From a virus (Duplodnaviria; Heunggongvirae; Uroviricota; Caudoviricetes): a stretch of DNA of 18,664 bases. Both the position numbers and the translations under genes were made by a program. Each line of letters starts with the position of its first letter. The stretch's first letter is position 1. Of the stretch, positions 2 through 8,132 are shown in pieces. Below the pieces are notes generated by a model. That model was not told the origin of the DNA and ran no database searches. It saw only the letters and a list, made by a program, of their open reading frames with translations. The stretch lies in IMG/VR virus record IMGVR_UViG_3300045988_130236, one strand, 5' to 3'.

Positions 2-1837
2 GCCTGGGTGGATGCGCATGGCGAGAAAGAATCGCTGTTTACGGATGAGGCGCAGGCTCACCTCTATGGTCATGTTGCTGGCGCTGCACGTGCTTTCAAT
101 ATTTCCCCTCTCTACTGGAAAAAATACCGTAAAGGACAGATGACCACGAGGCAGGCATATTCTGCCATTGCCCGTCTGTTTAACGATGAGTGGTGGACTC
201 ATCAGCTTAAAGGCCAGCGTATGCGCTGGCATGAGGCGTTACTGATAGCTGTCGGGGAGGTCAATAAAGACCGTTCTCCTTATGCCAGTAAACATGCCAT
301 TCGGGATGTGCGTGCACGCCGCCAGGCAAATCTGGAATTTCTTAAATCGTGTGACCTTGAAAACAGGGAAACCGGCGAGCGCATCGACCTTATCAGTAAG
401 GTGATGGGCAGTATTTCTAATCCTGAAATTCGCCGGATGGAGCTGATGAACACCATTGCCGGTATTGAGCGTTACGCCGCCTCAGAGGGTGATGTGGGGA
501 TGTTTATCACGCTTACCGCGCCGTCAAAGTATCACCCGACACGTCAGGTCGGAAAAGGCGAAAGTAAAACCGTCCAGCTAAATCACGGCTGGAATGATGA
601 GGCATTTAATCCAAAGGATGCGCAGCGTTATCTCTGCCGTATCTGGAGCCTGATGCGCACGGCATTCAAGGATAATGATTTACAGGCTTATGGTTTGCGT
701 GTTGTTGAGCCACACCACGACGGAACGCCGCACTGGCATATGATGCTTTTTTGTAATCCACGCCAGCGTAACCAGATTATCGAAATCATGCGTCGCTATG
801 CGCTCAAAGAGGATGGCGACGAAAGAGGAGCCGCGCGAAACCGTTTTCAGGCAAAACACCTTAACCGGGGCGGTGCTGCGGGATATATCGCGAAATACAT
901 CTCAAAAAACATCGACGGCTATGCGCTGGATGGTCAGCTCGATAACGATACCGGCAGGCCGCTGAAAGACACAGCGGCGGCTGTTACCGCATGGGCGTCA
1001 ACGTGGCGCATCCCGCAATTTAAAACGGTTGGCCTGCCGACAATGGGGGCTTACCGTGAACTACGCAAATTGCCTCGCGGCGTCAGCATTGCTGATGAGT
1101 TTGACGAGCGCGTCGAGGCTGCACGCGCCGCCGCAGACAGTGGTGATTTTGCGTTGTATATCAGCGCGCAGGGTGGGGCAAATGTTCCGCGCGATTGTCA
1201 GACTGTCAGAGTCGCCCGTAGCCCGTCGGATGACGTTAACGAGTACGAGGAAGAAGTCGAGAGAGTGGTCGGCATTTACGCGCCGCATCTCGGCGCGCGT
1301 CATATTCATATCACCAGAACCACGGACTGGCGCATTGTGCCGAAAGTGCCGGTCGTTGAGCCTTTGACTTTAAAAAGCGGCATCGCCGCGCCTCGGAGTC
1401 CTGTCAATAACTGTGGAAAGCTCACCGGTGGTGATACTTCGTTACCGGCTCCCACACCTTCTGAACACGCCGCAGCAGTGCTTAATCTGGTTGATGACGG
1501 TGTTATCGAATGGAGTGACCCGGAGGTTGTGAGGGCGCTCAGAGGTGCATTAAAATGCGGACTGAGAACACCAAATCGTCAGCAAAGAAACGGAAGTCCG
1601 TTAAAACCGCATGAAATAGCGCCATCAGCCAGGCTGACCAGGTCGGAACGATTGCAAATTACCCGTATTCGCGTTGATCTTGCTCAGAACGGTATCAGAC
1701 CTCAGCGATGGGAGCTTGAGTCGCTGGCGCGTGGGGCAACCGTAAATTATGACGGGAAAAAATTCACGTATCCGGTCGCTGATGAGTGGCCGGGATATTC
1801 AACTATAACAGAGTGGAATCAATTTGATGACGGGTAA
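2..1837 (+). CDS. A: Rolling-circle replication initiator endonuclease (P2 gpA-like), 5'-truncated by the window edge
   Basis: Frame is open to the window start (codons at 2-4, 5-7), so the gene continues upstream; the ORF track begins at a GTG at 8. Contains an HUH-type motif (TPHWHMM) and the paired catalytic tyrosines GYIAKYISKN (Tyr codons at 884-886 and 896-898), typical of P2 A-type RCR initiators. The ~609 aa seen here fits the C-terminal part of a ~760 aa A protein. Confidence 0.9.
   Translation, partial: AWVDAHGEKESLFTDEAQAHLYGHVAGAARAFNISPLYWKKYRKGQMTTRQAYSAIARLFNDEWWTHQLKGQRMRWHEALLIAVGEVNKDRSPYASKHAIRDVRARRQANLEFLKSCDLENRETGERIDLISKVMGSISNPEIRRMELMNTIAGIERYAASEGDVGMFITLTAPSKYHPTRQVGKGESKTVQLNHGWNDEAFNPKDAQRYLCRIWSLMRTAFKDNDLQAYGLRVVEPHHDGTPHWHMMLFCNPRQRNQIIEIMRRYALKEDGDERGAARNRFQAKHLNRGGAAGYIAKYISKNIDGYALDGQLDNDTGRPLKDTAAAVTAWASTWRIPQFKTVGLPTMGAYRELRKLPRGVSIADEFDERVEAARAAADSGDFALYISAQGGANVPRDCQTVRVARSPSDDVNEYEEEVERVVGIYAPHLGARHIHITRTTDWRIVPKVPVVEPLTLKSGIAAPRSPVNNCGKLTGGDTSLPAPTPSEHAAAVLNLVDDGVIEWSDPEVVRALRGALKCGLRTPNRQQRNGSPLKPHEIAPSARLTRSERLQITRIRVDLAQNGIRPQRWELESLARGATVNYDGKKFTYPVADEWPGYSTITEWNQFDDG
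1388..1407 (+). other. Putative origin of replication nick region inside gene A
   Basis: Sequence gcgcctcggagtcctgtcaa lies inside the A coding region downstream of the catalytic tyrosines. From memory, the P2 ori nick site is in A and has this or a very similar sequence. Recalled, not computed. Confidence 0.4.
1505..1695 (+). repeat. Direct repeat copy 1 (functional 3' end of gene A)
   Basis: atcgaatggagtgacccggaggttgtgagggcgctcagaggtgcattaaaatgcggactgagaacaccaaatcgtcagcaaagaaacggaagtccgttaaaaccgc... recurs with ~90% identity starting at 1837; similarity decays over roughly 190 bp. Confidence 0.85.
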
Positions 1838-2025
1838 TCGAATGGAATGATCCGGCGGTCGTGAGGGCGCTCAGAGGTGCATTAAAACACGGTCTGAGAA
1901 TACCAAATCGTCAGCAAAGAAACGGAAGTCCGTTAAAACCGCTTGCATTTGTGCCATCGCGAGGCTGATCAAATCAGGTTTGTGATAAATTACTAGTATT
2001 TATATAGACCTCGCTCAGTATGGCA
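1837..2025 (+). repeat. Direct repeat copy 2: out-of-frame remnant of an alternative gene A 3' end (pseudo-fragment)
   Basis: atcgaatggaatgatccggcggtcgtgagggcgctcagaggtgcattaaaacacggtctgagaataccaaatcgtcagcaaagaaacggaagtccgttaaaaccgc... starts on the last base of the A stop codon (TAA 1835-1837). It is shifted out of the A frame and hits a stop after 8 codons. Confidence 0.8.
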
Positions 2026-2254
2026 TCACACAGAAGTAATGTAAGCGTGGGGGGCGTGGTGTACCATTGATATACGACGGTCGAAAATTTACATAGCCGA
2101 TTTCCTGTGATTGGTTTTCGTTATGCACTCTTTTCTGAAGAGATTAACTACTGATAGACTCAGGTTGGATGTCAGAATCGCTATAGATTTCTTGCTATAT
2201 ATGTATTTTTCAATGAAAATGATCTCTGATTTAAACTGTAGTAAGGTGATTGGT

Positions 2255-2743
2255 ATGGATGGTTTATGGGAAAAAATATCGTCATATAATATATTTAATA
2301 ATCTTTTTCCAGGTGCTCTTTTTATTTATCTTCTTGAGAGAATGACGAAGATCGTTTTATCTGGCGATGATTTAATAAAAAATGTTGTCCTCTATTATTT
2401 TGTTGGCTTAGTCATTGGCCGGATTGGTTCTATCGTATTGGAACCTTTTTTAAAACTATCGCGTTTGATTAAGTTTGCTCCTTATAAAGATTATGTGTCA
2501 GCATGTGGTGTGGATGGAAAAATTGAAACTTTGCAAGAGATTGCGAATATGTATAGGACGATATTTTCAATGTCAATTATTCTTTTGGCGACATTGTGCG
2601 TTGTAGGACGGTTTACTGGCGAGACATATGGCTTATCTAAAATAACGTTGGCGGTTTTTGCTATTTTGTTTGTTGTCTCATATATTAAACAAATAAGATA
2701 CATAATATATAGAGTAAATGCTGTTAATAATAAGCTGCCGTAA
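2255..2743 (+). CDS. Small multi-pass inner-membrane protein, unknown function (cargo gene)
   Basis: The ORF track starts at 2111, but the ATG at 2255 has the only good SD (aaggtg, 6 nt upstream). About 162 aa with 3-4 hydrophobic helices (LFPGALFIYLL, VVLYYFVGLVIGRIGSIVL, IFSMSIILLATLCVVGRF, ITLAVFAILFVVSYI). Very AT-rich: 14 G+C in 60 nt at 2281-2340. Confidence 0.6.
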   Translation: MDGLWEKISSYNIFNNLFPGALFIYLLERMTKIVLSGDDLIKNVVLYYFVGLVIGRIGSIVLEPFLKLSRLIKFAPYKDYVSACGVDGKIETLQEIANMYRTIFSMSIILLATLCVVGRFTGETYGLSKITLAVFAILFVVSYIKQIRYIIYRVNAVNNKLP

Positions 2744-2756: not shown

Positions 2757-3848
2757 TTATTCTTCGGTTCTATAGTTACTAATGTATGATCGTGGAGTGG
2801 CTGTTTTCCATCCTGCCCTTTCAGGAGCATTATAAAAATGGTACTTACCAAGCCCCTCGGTGGCGATAACTTTCGCTCCTCGTCGAGTAAAGGCATTAAT
2901 TACAGCTTGATGGGGATGTTTATCTGAACCTGGGGCACATGATACAAATGCGGTTATCTCCCTTTTTTCGCCTTCATTTACAATGTTACCAACAAGTTTA
3001 TCGAGAACATCAGGGCCTACATTTCTCCGGCTACCATGATGAGGTACTTGAATGAATCTTAATGATTCTTTATTAATGTATTGGGAGGCTTGATCTAAGG
3101 CTGTTATACCAGCATCGCCAGTGAACACTAACGTTCTTCCATCAATCTCAAGTTTCAAAATGACACTTGAGTTATTTTGTGCCGAGGTGGTATCGTCATT
3201 ATCAATACCTTCATCAGTAAACCATTCAGCAACGTAATCAATAAATTTCTTCGTTTTTTCAACTACAGACTCAAAGACTGCTTTTAGTACTTCAAATCCA
3301 GCTGTATCCTCAGCTTTTTTGGGCATTCTTGCGAAATCAGGTATTAGAGTCTCATAGTAAGATTGGGTTGGCCCGATAACAACCAGAGTAGCATTATCCC
3401 AGGTCATTCCTTGAAAAGGCTCTTTTATTTCAATTCCTTTTTTTTCCGCTAATTTGACAGCGTCATAAGCTTTTTGTAAGTTTTCTTTCATTCGATTTGC
3501 AATACTGGCATCAGTTATCCTGCCATCTGCAAACTCACTTGCGAGACCTTGATTATGTTCCCAAGGCTTATGAATCCAAAACTCTTTTACTTCTGCATTT
3601 TCTAGAACAGATGTAAGTCCACCGACGTGGTCACCATCGGGGTGTGTGGAGATAAGCAAGTCAATAGTTTTTGTGCGGTAGTATTTTTCAATATGCTCAA
3701 TGACTTGTTCTCCGGTGCTGGCATATCCTGCATCAATAACGACAACTTTTTGTTCATCTCTTGAACCATGTAGGTTTCCCCATCTGATGCAGATCGCATC
3801 GCCGCTTTTTTTTTCGCCAACAGCTAGAAAATCAATTTCGTAACCCAT
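2757..3848 (-). CDS. Metallo-beta-lactamase-fold hydrolase, ComEC/Rec2-like, predicted nuclease (cargo gene)
   Basis: 363 aa. MBL signature motifs: VVVIDAG, then LLISTHPDGDHVGG (codons at 3627-3644), then FTGDAG and VPHHGS (His-His codons at 3036-3041). SD aagga sits 8 nt upstream of the ATG at 3848. Lower GC than the phage backbone. Confidence 0.8.
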   Translation of the reverse strand: MGYEIDFLAVGEKKSGDAICIRWGNLHGSRDEQKVVVIDAGYASTGEQVIEHIEKYYRTKTIDLLISTHPDGDHVGGLTSVLENAEVKEFWIHKPWEHNQGLASEFADGRITDASIANRMKENLQKAYDAVKLAEKKGIEIKEPFQGMTWDNATLVVIGPTQSYYETLIPDFARMPKKAEDTAGFEVLKAVFESVVEKTKKFIDYVAEWFTDEGIDNDDTTSAQNNSSVILKLEIDGRTLVFTGDAGITALDQASQYINKESLRFIQVPHHGSRRNVGPDVLDKLVGNIVNEGEKREITAFVSCAPGSDKHPHQAVINAFTRRGAKVIATEGLGKYHFYNAPERAGWKTATPRSYISNYRTEE

Positions 3849-4010: not shown

Positions 4011-4460
4011 CTATGACACTGACGCAACCAGATTAACGCCGTGAGTCAGCAGATTTGTAATCACACCGGCAATGACCCCAGGAGTCCCATCTTTCACCGC
4101 ACTGATCACTTTATCCCCCATCGTTTCATTTCCACCAAGCACCTCGGGTTTTTTGTTAAGAACTGTGAGCGCTTTTTCAGTAAGTCGAACATCGTAAAAA
4201 TACGACTGATGGTCTGTGTTGTACTGAATGTACCCGTTTTCACAGAGAAAATTGAATGTACCTTCAACCACACTACGCAACTGATTTAACGCTTTCATTT
4301 CTGGTGAGTTAAGTTGGTCAAAGTAGTCATCAGGTAGCGCGGCGTTAAATTTGTCGTAGTTAATCACCTGTGGTACGGGAAAATTTTCCCATAGTACTGC
4401 AAAGATTTCCGCCGTTTGTTGGTTAAATAAATCGAGATTTTTCGACATGCAAAATTCCAT
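4011..4460 (-). CDS. Hypothetical cytoplasmic protein, first gene of the cargo operon upstream of the MBL gene; start ambiguous
   Basis: Open frame 4011-4550 (179 aa) with in-frame ATGs at 4550, 4460 and 4448; none has a strong SD. No TM segments, no Walker or other motif I recognise. Same strand as the MBL gene, 162 bp upstream of it. Confidence 0.5.
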   Translation of the reverse strand: MEFCMSKNLDLFNQQTAEIFAVLWENFPVPQVINYDKFNAALPDDYFDQLNSPEMKALNQLRSVVEGTFNFLCENGYIQYNTDHQSYFYDVRLTEKALTVLNKKPEVLGGNETMGDKVISAVKDGTPGVIAGVITNLLTHGVNLVASVS

Positions 4461-4781
4461 TTCTTTTGATAATGAGTGGGTTAAACGCTGGACGAGGCAG
4501 ATTACCACTCTGGCACAAAACAATGATCTTAGTTCACGCGAAGTTGACATATATACCGATAAGCTGGTTGCGCAGGCAACTAGCGTAGAACTCGCTCAGG
4601 TCATCAAGATGCTATTGAATTATATTCGAATGCACAAATAAAATGATCTGTATCAATCTGTTAGGTGTCGTTTGTAAAAATGTGTGGACACGATTGTTCT
4701 GCTAATTGTTGTCAACATGTGCGTCAACAGTGAGATTGGTGCATTGCGCGGCCAGTGACAACTTTAAAAATTGGCCAAAAC

Positions 4782-5152: not shown

Positions 5153-6187
5153 TCAGCCGTTGTCAGTGTCCAGTGAGTAGTTTTTAAAGCGGATGACCTC
5201 CTGACCGAGCCAGCCGTTTATCTCGCGGATCCTGTCCTGTAGCGGGATAAGCTCATTGCGGACAAAGACCTTTGCCACTTTCTCAATATCACCCAGCGAC
5301 CCGACGTTCTCCGGCTTGCCGCCCATCAACTGAAAGGGGATGCGGTGCGCGTCCAGCAGGTCAGCGGCGCTGGCTTTTTTGATATTAAAAAAATCGTCCT
5401 TCGTTGCCACTTCACTGAGCGGGATAATTTTAATGCCGTCGGCTTTCCCCTGCGGGGCATAGAGAAACAGATTTTTAAAGTTGTTGCGGCCTTTCGACTT
5501 GACCATGTTTTCGCGAAGCATTTCGATATCGTTGCGATCCTGCACGGCATCGGTGACGTACATGATATATCCGGCATGAGCGCCGTTTTCGTAATACTTG
5601 CGGCGGAACAGCGTGGCCGACTCATTCAGCCAGGCAGAATTAAGGGCGCTGAGATATTCCGGCAGGCCGTACAGCTCCTGATTAATATCCGGCTCCAGCA
5701 GGTGAAACACGGAGCCGGGCGCGAAGGCTGTCGGCTCGTTGAAGGACGGCACCCACCAGTAAACATCCTCCTCCACGCCACGGCGGGTATATTTTGCCGG
5801 TGAGGTTTCCAGTCTGATGACCTTACCGGTGGTGCTGTAACGCTTTTCCAGAAACGCATTACCGAACACCAGAAAATCCAGCACAAAGCGGCTGAAATCC
5901 TGCTGGGAAAGCCACGGGTGCGGAATAAACGTTGAAGCCAGAATATTACGTTTGACGTAAATCGGTGAGCTGTGATGTACGGCAGCACGCAGGCTTTTTG
6001 CCAGACCGGTAAAGCTGACCGGTGGCTCATACCATCTGCCGTTACTGATGCACTCGACGTAATCCAGAATGTCACGGCGGTCGAGTACCGGCACCGGTTC
6101 ACCAAAGGTGAATGCCTCCATTTTCGGGGCGCTGGCGGTCATTTTTTTTGCCGCAGGTTGCGGTGTTTTCCCTTTTTTCTTGCTCAT
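5153..6187 (-). CDS. Q: Portal protein (P2 gpQ-like)
   Basis: 344 aa, starts MSKKKGKTPQPAAKK; length and sequence fit P2 Q. Its start overlaps the P stop (TGATG). Confidence 0.92.
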   Translation of the reverse strand: MSKKKGKTPQPAAKKMTASAPKMEAFTFGEPVPVLDRRDILDYVECISNGRWYEPPVSFTGLAKSLRAAVHHSSPIYVKRNILASTFIPHPWLSQQDFSRFVLDFLVFGNAFLEKRYSTTGKVIRLETSPAKYTRRGVEEDVYWWVPSFNEPTAFAPGSVFHLLEPDINQELYGLPEYLSALNSAWLNESATLFRRKYYENGAHAGYIMYVTDAVQDRNDIEMLRENMVKSKGRNNFKNLFLYAPQGKADGIKIIPLSEVATKDDFFNIKKASAADLLDAHRIPFQLMGGKPENVGSLGDIEKVAKVFVRNELIPLQDRIREINGWLGQEVIRFKNYSLDTDNG

Positions 6188-7959
6188 CAGTAAAACTCCA
6201 GAATGGTGGATGTCAGCGGGGTGCTGATACCGGCGGTGAGTGGCTCATTTAACAGGGCGTGCATGGTCGCCCAGGCGAGGTCGGCGTGGCTGGCTTCCTC
6301 GCTGCGGCTGGCCTCATAGGTGGCGCTGCGTCCGCTGCTGGTCATGGTCTTGCGGATAGCCATAAACGAGCTGGTGATGTCGGTGGCGCTGACGTCATAT
6401 TCCAGACAGCCACGGCGGATAACGTCTTTTGCCTTGAGCACCATTGCGGTTTTCATTTCCGGCGTGTAGCGGATATCGCGCGCGGCGGGATAGAACGAGC
6501 GAACGAGCTGGAACACGCCGACACCGAGGCCGGTGGCATCAATTCCGATGTATTCGACGTTGTATTTTTCGGTGAGTTTGCGGATGGATTCAGCCTGGGT
6601 GGCAAAGTCCATGCCTTTCCACTGGTGACGCTCAAGTATTCTGAATTTGCCACCGGCCACCACCGGCGGTGCCAGCACCACGCATCCGGCACTGTCGCCA
6701 CGGTGTGACGGGTCGTAACCAATCCATACCGGACGTGAGCCGAACGGATTGGCGGCAAACGGCGCATAGTCTTCCCATTCTTCCAGCGTGTCGACCATGC
6801 AGCGTTGCAGCTCCTCGAACGGGAACACCGACGCCTTGTCGTCAACAAATTCACACATGAACAGGTTTTTAAAATCGTCGGCGCTGTTTTCACGTTTGAG
6901 CTGCTCAATGTCGAACAGTGTGCAGCCACCTTTCAGGGCATCCTCAATGGTGACAATCTGCCGCCACTGGCCGTCCGCACAGAGAAGACCACCGGCAAGG
7001 GCGTTATGACTGACGTCGATTTCCACGCGTTCGGCGGCGCTGGCGCGTCCCCGGTTGAACAGTTCACCTGACCAGAACGGGTAGGCGTCGTGCGCCAGCG
7101 TGGACGGGGTGGAGAAATAGGTCGAGCGCAGGTGACTCTGTGAGGCCATACCTGATGCTACCTTACGCAGTACCTGAAAATTCGGGATCCAGAAAATCTC
7201 GTCGACGTACAGGTCGCCGTTATGGCTCTGTGCGGTGTTGGAGTTGGTGCCGAGAAAAATCAGTTTTGCACCGTTATTGCCCAGGACAATCGGGTCACCG
7301 GTCAGGTCAACGTCAACCAGCCGGGCAAAGGCAATGATGTATTCGCGGAACACATACGCCTGCGTTTTACTGGCCGACAGAAAAATCTGGTTATGGCCGG
7401 TTTTCAGGGCGCGCAGCAGCGCCTCGCGGGAAAAATAAAACGTCGCGCCAATCTGGCGGGATTTCAGGATATCGCGGATGCGGTGCTCAAGCCCGGCGCG
7501 ATACCAGTGCAACTGATATTCGAAAGACTGCTCAAAGAAAATCTGCTCCAGCTTTTCGATGGCCTCGTCGCTGAAAAAATTCTTTTTCGGTTTGCGACGC
7601 CCGCCTTTGTTGCGGTTAGCGACGTTCGGATTAAGGTCTGCCTCGTTGCCGGTCTGACTGTAGCGGTTTACCCGTGCCAGTCGTTCAATCTGGCGTCCGA
7701 GCAGGTCAATTTCCTTGAAGTCACCGCCGGTTTTCTGCGGTTTTATGATGAGCTGGGTCAGCCGCGCTTCCAGACTCATTTCGACACGGCTGATGGGAGC
7801 AACGCTGTCCCAGCCGTCGCGCTGTTTCCAGCTCTGCACCGTCGGGCGTTTCATCTGCAACATGGCGGCAATCTGCGGCACGGAAAACCCCTGCCAGTAC
7901 AGCAGCGCCGCCTGACGACGCGGGTCGTGTAAAAGAGTGGTGTCTGTGGTGATGGTCAT
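6187..7959 (-). CDS. P: Terminase large (ATPase) subunit (P2 gpP-like)
   Basis: 590 aa from the ATG at 7959 (MTITTDTTLL); the ORF track extends 10 codons further to 7989. Length matches P2 P; divergent from O across a shared control region. Confidence 0.92.
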   Translation of the reverse strand: MTITTDTTLLHDPRRQAALLYWQGFSVPQIAAMLQMKRPTVQSWKQRDGWDSVAPISRVEMSLEARLTQLIIKPQKTGGDFKEIDLLGRQIERLARVNRYSQTGNEADLNPNVANRNKGGRRKPKKNFFSDEAIEKLEQIFFEQSFEYQLHWYRAGLEHRIRDILKSRQIGATFYFSREALLRALKTGHNQIFLSASKTQAYVFREYIIAFARLVDVDLTGDPIVLGNNGAKLIFLGTNSNTAQSHNGDLYVDEIFWIPNFQVLRKVASGMASQSHLRSTYFSTPSTLAHDAYPFWSGELFNRGRASAAERVEIDVSHNALAGGLLCADGQWRQIVTIEDALKGGCTLFDIEQLKRENSADDFKNLFMCEFVDDKASVFPFEELQRCMVDTLEEWEDYAPFAANPFGSRPVWIGYDPSHRGDSAGCVVLAPPVVAGGKFRILERHQWKGMDFATQAESIRKLTEKYNVEYIGIDATGLGVGVFQLVRSFYPAARDIRYTPEMKTAMVLKAKDVIRRGCLEYDVSATDITSSFMAIRKTMTSSGRSATYEASRSEEASHADLAWATMHALLNEPLTAGISTPLTSTILEFY

Positions 7960-8132
7960 GAATACCTCGCCGTGATGAATACACGGCAAGGCTACTGAGT
8001 CGCGCCCCGCGATTCGCTAAGGTGCTGTTGTGTCAGTGATAAGCCATCCGGGACTGATGGCGGAGGATGCGCATCGTCGGGAAACTGATGCCGACATGTG
8101 ACTCCTCTAATCACTATTCAGGACTCCTGACA
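7960..8132. promoter_or_regulatory. Divergent late promoter region (expected Ogr-dependent P_P and P_O)
   Basis: Intergenic region between divergent P and O, where P2 places its late promoters. I found no exact TGT-N12-ACA activator dyad by eye, so this rests on gene organisation only. Confidence 0.35.

Follow-up and report, generated by a model that had tools for sequence, protein, structure and literature searches.

The window analyzed here, an 18,664-nucleotide stretch of a virus genome (IMG/VR record IMGVR_UViG_3300045988_130236), carries a second, damaged copy of the 3′ end of the replication gene A of a P2-like Escherichia coli prophage, between that gene and the cargo that follows it, which raises the questions of how the copy arose and whether it has a function. 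An earlier note, made from the sequence alone, had read it as what homologous exchange of cargo leaves behind.

Extent and frame of the repeat

Gene A (8 to 1837, plus strand), encoding the gpA replication endonuclease, is an open reading frame (ORF) whose 5′ end is cut by the window edge. The full gene measures 2301 nt in the source record, and the part in the window is a 100% match to the coding sequence annotated as “replication endonuclease” in NZ_CP042336 (1 to 2301). It shows about 92% nucleotide identity to the A genes of P2-like phages, aligns colinearly with A of NC_001895, and is identified as a rolling-circle replication endonuclease of the P2-like (Peduovirus) type. The origin nick of P2 (NC_001895 position 29892, GenBank rep_origin feature) maps to position 1395, inside the A coding region. 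The 30-mer around the nick matches P2 exactly, and the origin core (1388 to 1417, plus strand) is a 30-nt block without variation across 78 distinct A sequences.

The repeat itself is confirmed. A repeat finder recovered two pieces, 1502 to 1626 versus 1834 to 1958 (125 nt, 89% identical, spacing 332) and 1484 to 1500 versus 1817 to 1833 (spacing 333). Gapped alignment placed both in one colinear match of 1484 to about 1800 with 1817 to about 2140, giving a tandem unit of 333 nt, or 111 codons (1484 to 1816 versus 1817 to about 2150). Local alignment of the two copies scored 213, compared with 18.7 ± 2.2 for shuffled sequences (z about 87). The weak tail alone (1627 to 1816 versus 1959 to 2160) gave a z of about 17, and an unrelated control segment of A gave 0.3 in the same shuffle test. 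By tblastn, the head of copy 2 matched gpA with an E value of 1e-15 and the tail matched gpA residues at 37% over 70 amino acids (E value of 3e-6); the longest exact run common to both copies is 41 nt (at 1570 and 1902). The recurrence at roughly 90% identity described in the earlier note thus holds, with its limits moved: the second copy begins at 1817, within A and 21 nt short of its end, instead of at the final nucleotide of the stop codon, and the weak similarity, previously followed to about 2025, reaches about 2150. The same arrangement is present in 23 independent complete Escherichia coli genomes and five IMG/VR contigs, so it is not an assembly artifact.

Copy 1 (1484 to 1816, plus strand) contains the final 111 codons (333 nt) of A in functional form and is the parent type of the repeat. 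With a spacing of 333 (3 × 111), the A frame runs on through 1817 to 1834, and A reads seven codons into copy 2, where it meets a TAA stop (1835 to 1837). This in-frame junction and new A end (1817 to 1837, plus strand), AAT CAA TTT GAT GAC GGG TAA (NQFDDG*), is homologous to AAT CTG GTT GAT GAC GGT GTT (NLVDDGV) at 1484, and the present TAA was made by a 1-nt deletion and one T>A substitution. From 1834 onward, the 1-nt deletion sets the 89% block off by −1 from the A frame, in agreement with the earlier description of copy 2 as out of frame.

Linkage of copy 2 to the cargo

The variable region between A and Q has copy 2 precisely at its left border, and the description of copy 2 as the left boundary of the cargo is borne out. 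The cargo is preceded by a leader (2186 to 2254, plus strand), outside the remnant, with a promoter-like block and the Shine-Dalgarno sequence of the first cargo gene, and this leader is conserved in three M48 cargo lineages. The first cargo gene (2255 to 2743, plus strand) encodes a small membrane protein matching PADLOC PDC-M48A (E value of 1e-50), the profile match beginning at residue 15 of the ORF at 2213. The second (2757 to 3848, minus strand) encodes a metallo-beta-lactamase-fold protein (PADLOC PDC-M48B, 7e-101; Lactamase_B, 7e-12). On these profile matches the cargo is a candidate defense system, PDC-M48, and it contains no recombinase gene. The portal gene (5153 to 6187, minus strand) is annotated as “phage portal protein” in an identical record, and the cargo sits between A and Q, a slot that other loci fill with different genes, as expected of variable cargo.

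The duplication was found only beside PDC-M48 cargo, in 23 of 5,426 complete E. coli genomes and in the five IMG/VR contigs, and copy 2 is nearly identical in all 28 carriers. It occurred at 6 of 84 loci, and no more were found among about 150 distinct loci, 22 of them from other genera. A single copy of the A 3′ end is present in phage P2 (NC_001895), a P2-type record, 11W, and YpM_46. A universal element of P2-like A genes, one of the outcomes that the earlier note had named as fatal to its view, is rejected by this distribution. The association with one cassette also contradicts the idea that cargo exchange generally leaves such duplicates. M48 cargo without the duplicate occurs in the 11W type, Huaxiibacter, and loci L194 to L198, and the further M48 cassettes searched contained no intermediate forms of the relic.

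Two natural recombinants bear on which copy travels with the cargo. In strain LR-25, copy 1 differs from the window at 22 sites, which fall within 1515 to 1652, and has been replaced by another allele; copy 2 of this strain shows one substitution and one indel only, the cargo examined (to 3760) shows four substitutions, and there is no sign of ongoing homogenization between copy 2 and the copy in cis. Another P2-like locus, L010, has the copy 1 allele of the window (0 of 313 mismatches over 1484 to 1796), with an A end and a cargo that differ from those of the window. These comparisons indicate that copy 2 is linked to the cargo and that homologous recombination exchanges the functional A 3′ end upstream of it. 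The cargo-linked block begins with the final 20 nt of A-type sequence (1797 to 1816, plus strand), which differ at 6 of 20 positions from the commonest (DUF3850-type) A end; beyond GATGAGTGGCCGGGA, different cargo types no longer share homology. The allele boundary lies at about 1797, and only the last seven codons of A (1817 to 1837) are encoded by copy 2.

The explanation offered in the earlier note, in which homologous recombination exchanged the cargo, incoming DNA brought its own A 3′ end, the resident end stayed behind as copy 2, and A may have become chimeric from 1626, is compatible with a remnant at the left border of the cargo and with the fact that A alleles do recombine among P2-like phages; passages of the hotspot literature invoke homologous recombination for cargo swaps as well. 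However, in-register homologous exchange leaves no duplicate, and none was seen at about 150 other junctions; one illegitimate join of 1816 to the equivalent of 1484 is needed. The roles are, moreover, reversed, since the remnant that stays with the cargo in the LR-25 and L010 comparisons is copy 2, not copy 1. The proposed chimeric point fails too, L010 being identical to the window on either side of 1626. A split of the two copies into different lineages, which the earlier note had suggested looking for, is not clear, and both copies derive from ordinary E. coli P2-type alleles. Homologous exchange of this kind is thus an unlikely origin of the duplicate.

A direct repeat at the edge of a low-GC insert might also stem from site-specific insertion of an element, as an att-like repeat or as a target-site duplication. 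The copies are adjacent in tandem, however, both to the left of the cargo instead of one at each end, and neither the right border nor any other stretch up to gene O (locus L004) contains A-like sequence. With a repeat that is 333 nt of coding sequence and a cargo that lacks a recombinase gene, this origin is extremely improbable.

Uneven decay of copy 2

Copy 2 translates as VIEWNDPAVVRALRGALKHGLRIPNRQQRNGSPLKP, followed by a frameshift and then by ARL..IT.I..DLAQ.GI..YDG.KFT.P with stops. Its reading frame is broken by the −1 shift at 1834 and by a second one at about 1958, and it also carries four stops and several indels. Its longest ORF encodes 35 amino acids and none encodes 40 or more; with the first cargo gene starting at 2255, copy 2 is not part of a real downstream gene. 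Homology combined with lesions and the lack of an intact ORF mark it as a pseudogene fragment, and its characterization as a decaying, noncoding remnant of the A 3′ end was correct.

The decay is very uneven. The copy 2 core (1837 to 1942, plus strand) is nearly intact A-derived sequence, frameshifted by −1, with two private substitutions, too few for a substitution pattern to be read. The tail (1943 to 2150, plus strand; GC 0.41) is heavily decayed, with several indels, the four in-frame stops, and about 34 to 35% of the aligned positions substituted. Private changes amount to 2 of 106 positions in the core versus 56 of 164 in the tail (Fisher P = 6e-12). The changes in the tail are biased from GC to AT (strong-to-weak versus weak-to-strong, 32:14) and fall on the three codon positions as 17/16/23, and the four stops compare with 2.9 to 3.9 expected from 56 to 75 random substitutions. 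Together, the stops, the weak codon-position skew, and the AT bias are the pattern of neutral decay. At 7 of 17 differing sites, those 7 within the core, copy 2 has the state of the majority allele where copy 1 has a minority state (at 1557, the G of copy 1 is common to just 1 of 72 alleles); copy 2 was therefore not derived from copy 1 as it now stands.

A search for function in copy 2 gave no sign of one, and the relic appears ordinary. No Rfam match was found over 1200 to 2400 at an E value of ≤1, copy 2 folds no better than shuffled sequences (z of −0.12 on the plus strand and −1.43 on the minus strand), and a promoter consensus scan found none in the relic and a count not above that of shuffles. 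Copy 2 lacks the gpA nick-site sequence, and its alignment begins at the equivalent of 1484; with the nick at 1395 and the duplicated unit starting at 1484, 89 nt farther downstream, the nick block was not duplicated and copy 2 is not a second origin. Conservation of 1502 to 1626 as a cis element was also considered and rejected, the segment being more variable than upstream A.

A core selected as a functional cis element, whether a binding site for gpA or a host factor, part of an extended origin, an RNA element in the 3′ untranslated region of the early operon, or a cargo regulator, would account for a segment that is strikingly intact between decayed flanks, that shares the 41-nt exact match with copy 1, and that can form a small hairpin, AACGGAAGTCCGTT. 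Among functional A genes, however, the homologous segment shows no special conservation at the DNA level (π of 0.075, 0.144 at third positions, higher than upstream), and the Rfam and plus-strand folding results, as well as the position of the nick and its invariant block outside the unit, also argue against such an element. All other P2-like phages, further M48 carriers among them, manage with a single copy, and the leader conserved among M48 cassettes begins only at about 2186. Selection for such an element is very doubtful.

The difference between core and tail might instead reflect a single-age relic from a mosaic donor with a normal head and a highly divergent functional tail, in which case the contrast would be older than the loss of function. 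Alleles of the 11W type have this structure, with strongly diverged last ~30 codons and related M48 cargo adjacent, and the copy 2 tail has 8 of 26 11W-specific states. Pairwise colinearity was suggestive of an 11W-type allele as the copy 2 donor, but identity and the informative sites spoke against it: the tail is closer to ordinary E. coli alleles (24 of 58 amino acids) than to 11W (17 of 47) or Huaxiibacter (20 of 55), and the excess of 11W-shared states is not significant after correction for AT bias (P about 0.13). No allele in the databases exceeds about 61% identity to the tail, and an exotic donor or one from another genus was rejected, ordinary E. coli alleles being closest. The tail also fits neutral decay in its indels, its number of stops, its AT bias, and its weak skew among codon positions. 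We consider a mosaic donor improbable.

The reading that we favor, with a probability of roughly 70%, is that copy 2 is a pseudogene comprising the final 111 codons of A, a nonfunctional, cargo-linked relic left by an out-of-register join and with a core refreshed later. A single illegitimate join, with at most 1 nt of microhomology, would have connected the A 3′ end (1816) to the equivalent of 1484, between two P2-like genomes or between sister copies, to produce an in-frame tandem duplication of 333 nt at the border of A and cargo. The upstream copy would have been kept functional and the downstream copy severed by the 1-nt deletion and the substitution that created TAA seven codons past the junction, after which the severed copy would have drifted within the untranslated DNA that separates A from the first cargo gene. 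The relic is tied to the PDC-M48 cargo both physically and by descent and hitchhikes with it, and the functional A 3′ end continues to be exchanged among P2-like phages by ordinary homologous recombination, with a right-hand limit around 1653 to 1797. The relic would be of two ages, with a tail in neutral decay of about 0.35 to 0.45 substitutions per site and an almost pristine 106-nt core; most likely a short-patch gene conversion early on, with a functional A allele of the majority type as donor, refreshed this core. Neither a conversion donor nor an intermediate form turned up, and core and tail differ tenfold in decay, a contrast that the model does not directly explain. These points count against the reading, as does LR-25, which shows no ongoing homogenization. 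Purifying selection may also have acted on the core. Active maintenance of the core by selection or recurrent conversion, as a binding site or decoy for gpA or a host factor or as a portable homology handle, is a long shot; if true, a site or decoy might couple cargo expression or cassette mobility to phage replication, and a handle might help the cassette to recombine into new P2-like genomes.

A scar at a defense hotspot

Mosaic junctions of temperate phages bear scars of partial-gene duplication from illegitimate or microhomology-mediated recombination. The relic resembles these scars in being a core-gene fragment at a novel joint that is disabled by frameshifts and stops and drifts AT-rich like its surroundings. 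It differs from them in having an in-frame joint, which provides the final seven codons and the stop of a functional gene, and in showing two very different degrees of decay. The closest comparison by cargo is with phages 11W, D8, 12W, and P24E6b, which have a related two-gene cargo directly after A (M48A, 63% amino acid identity; M48B, 75%) and a leader upstream of M48A that is homologous to that of the window; these phages have no second copy of the A 3′ end, and the last ~30 codons of their functional A are diverged.

In passages of two studies (Rousset et al. 2022, PMC9122126; NAR 2026, PMC13586616), the interval from gpA to gpQ in P2-like phages is a variable “TO region,” or defense hotspot. 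The window has low-GC cargo in the same slot, directly after A and before cos and Q, which is likewise candidate PADLOC defense cargo, and homology breaks in the last ~15 codons of A. It is set apart from those passages by its duplicated A 3′ end, confined to one cassette in this sample. Term searches of PMC9122126 and PMC13586616, which did not extend to the older “TO region” work (Nilsson et al. 2004; Odegrip et al. 2006), met no description of a duplicated A 3′ end in the passages retrieved.

In practical terms, a 125-nt, 89% identical direct repeat can mislead annotation, and crossing-over inside it would truncate A. The relic is a dated footprint of a defense cassette joining a P2-like phage. 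At least one joining step would have been illegitimate and out of register, not a clean homologous exchange, and cassette and scar would have spread afterwards while the adjoining essential gene kept recombining. The M48 cassette also adjoins A genes that are too divergent for homologous recombination, which fits a role for nonhomologous joins in moving cargo between distant P2-like phages.

Gene A and the cargo region

The window, a P2-like (Peduovirus) prophage from E. coli, is 100% identical to that of strain GZ04-0086 (NZ_CP042336). Gene A (8 to 1837, + strand, cut by the window edge) encodes the rolling-circle replication endonuclease, and the portal gene Q (5153 to 6187) and terminase gene P (6187 to 7989) both lie on the - strand. 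The A-to-Q interval is low in GC (0.28 to 0.44, versus 0.50 to 0.61 within A), and excerpts of two reports describe the gpA-gpQ interval of P2-like phages as a variable defence hotspot (PMC9122126; PMC13586616). The cargo comprises three genes. The first (2255 to 2743, +) encodes a small membrane protein matching PADLOC PDC-M48A (E 1e-50), and the second, convergent with it (2757 to 3848, -), encodes a metallo-beta-lactamase-fold protein matching PDC-M48B (E 7e-101). Their PGAP names, "phosphohistidine phosphatase" and "ComEC/Rec2 family competence protein," respectively, look misleading, and M48B also matches LmuA and DRT-associated MBL profiles. A hairpin between the two genes (AAGCTGCC-GTAA-GGCAGCTT, about 2736 to 2755), uncalled by a consensus scan, is likely a bidirectional terminator. 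The third open reading frame (4011 to 4550, -) had no match in Pfam or PADLOC. It has homologs of about 79% identity beside other cargo types (collected loci L036, L088, L149, and L183) and is apparently a separate module near cos.

A decayed tandem copy of the A 3' end

The A 3' region is followed by a second copy of itself. Positions 1502 to 1626 recur at 1834 to 1958 with 89% identity, a short extra piece (1484 to 1500) recurs at 1817 to 1833, and gapped alignment joins these into a single colinear similarity (1484 to ~1800 versus 1817 to ~2140) with a 333-nt tandem unit. The alignment scores 87 SD over shuffles, the weak tail by itself scores 17 SD (control segment, 0.3 SD), and head and tail are each gpA-like in tblastn searches, confirming the duplicate claimed in the earlier note. 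As 333 is 3 × 111, the junction is in frame. A ends at 1817 to 1837 with AAT CAA TTT GAT GAC GGG TAA (NQFDDG*), homologous to AAT CTG GTT GAT GAC GGT GTT ATC (NLVDDGVI) starting at 1484, so the present stop, the product of a 1-nt deletion plus one T>A substitution, falls within copy 2. From 1834, the copy 2 frame is shifted by -1, and the head translates as VIEWNDPAVVRALRGALKHGLRIPNRQQRNGSPLKP. After a second 1-nt deletion near 1958, the tail translates as ARL..IT.I..DLAQ.GI..YDG.KFT.P. No ORF of at least 40 amino acids overlaps 1838 to 2110 on either strand.

Decay is uneven along copy 2. The head (1834 to 1958) differs from copy 1 at 14/125 positions, without codon-position skew or AT bias. 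Over 1484 to 1626, 17 substitutions separate the copies; at 7 of these, copy 2 has the state of most functional alleles and copy 1 a minority state, and the remaining 10 occur in copy 2 alone, clustering at 1821 to 1836 and 1943 to 1952. The core (1837 to 1942), which is in register with the tail, is thus nearly pristine between decayed flanks, with two private changes in 106 nt and the majority allele state at the 7 sites. The tail (scored over 1959 to ~2124, with similarity on to ~2150) has 56/164 differences, several indels, four in-frame stops, a GC-to-AT ratio of 32:14, and a GC content of 0.41 (core versus tail decay, Fisher p = 6e-12). Its differences are spread over codon positions (17/16/23), and an equal number of random substitutions would give 2.9 to 3.9 stops, which argues for neutral decay in the tail, unlike the core. 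Preservation of the core is most simply explained by early short-patch conversion; a majority-type functional allele would have refreshed it. All carriers vary too little in this stretch to separate this from constraint on the core, a less probable alternative. The ori nick of P2 (GenBank rep_origin, NC_001895:29892) maps to 1395, inside a 30-nt block of A (1388 to 1417) that does not vary across 78 distinct P2-like A sequences, and as this is 89 nt upstream of the duplicated unit, copy 2 lacks the nick site. In functional A genes, the corresponding segment showed no unusual conservation, the relic had no Rfam match, the copy 2 fold z was -0.12, and a promoter scan called none in the relic, with counts not above shuffles. 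Downstream of the relic comes the leader kept in the three M48 lineages (about 2186 to 2254), with a Shine-Dalgarno sequence ahead of the ATG at 2255.

Distribution, cargo linkage, and source

Only one A 3' copy is present in phage P2 (NC_001895), a P2-type record, 11W, and YpM_46. A second copy was found in 6/84 first-collected loci, only those six having PDC-M48 cargo of the window type, and adding 22 other-genus loci and 80 loci seeded with a different allele yielded no further one. Among 5,426 complete E. coli genomes, 23 carry the duplication and about 1,600 a single-copy A end. Many RefSeq E. coli chromosomes begin at nucleotide 1 of prophage gene A (record positions 1464/1864/2414; collected locus L004 included), apparently rotated onto a "replication" gene instead of dnaA.

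In strain LR-25, copy 1 is a different allele (22 differences within 1515 to 1652), and copy 2 has a single substitution and a single indel, with four substitutions in the cargo examined (to 3760). The collected locus L010 has 0/313 mismatches to the window over 1484 to 1796 and diverges from 1797 onward (6/20), with different cargo. These patterns indicate that copy 2 is part of a cargo-linked block beginning around 1797. They do not support a resident remnant beside a functional incoming A end, as the earlier note proposed, and the L010 identity speaks against an A gene chimeric at 1626. The functional A 3' end upstream of copy 2, as these alleles show, is swapped by homologous recombination.

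No allele closer than about 61% overall to copy 2 was found in the phage collection or a 5.8-billion-protein database. At the protein level, ordinary P2-type alleles of E. coli are nearest to the tail (24/58), which is less like the A tails accompanying M48 cargo (11W, 17/47; Huaxiibacter, 20/55). An 11W-type donor was rejected: the seeming colinearity with 11W comes from the common leader and cargo gene, and the surplus of 11W-like tail states (8/26) falls short of significance when AT bias is allowed for. Functional A of 11W-type phages (locus L002, 3420 to 3517) has strongly diverged last ~30 codons (...TYGRKTFIYPTIDVCLGYSAFTK), an allele showing that the very end of the A protein varies together with the adjoining cargo.

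Origin of the relic

Copy 2 is best explained as the relic of one out-of-register join. An A 3' end would have fused to an internal A position, creating an in-frame tandem duplication; a new stop would then have truncated the downstream copy, which drifted afterwards and is now carried along as a hitchhiker with the M48 cassette. Related cassettes that lack the relic lie directly 3' of A in phages of the 11W type and of the Huaxiibacter type (A C-terminus 60% identical), and beside A genes matching only at 40% over 70 amino acids. The 60% and 40% matches are from very divergent Peduoviridae (collected loci L099, L198, and L194 to L197), and DNA homology in A alone cannot explain the spread of the cassette. 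An A 3' remnant at the cargo border, as the earlier note recognized, stands, but the mechanism given there, homologous-recombination-driven cargo exchange, is not supported. The duplication is genuine, and as recombination scars go it is ordinary. The retrieved portion of the hotspot literature contains no description of a duplicated A 3' end, and the relic is of modest value as a footprint that past nonhomologous joining left on a P2 hotspot cassette.
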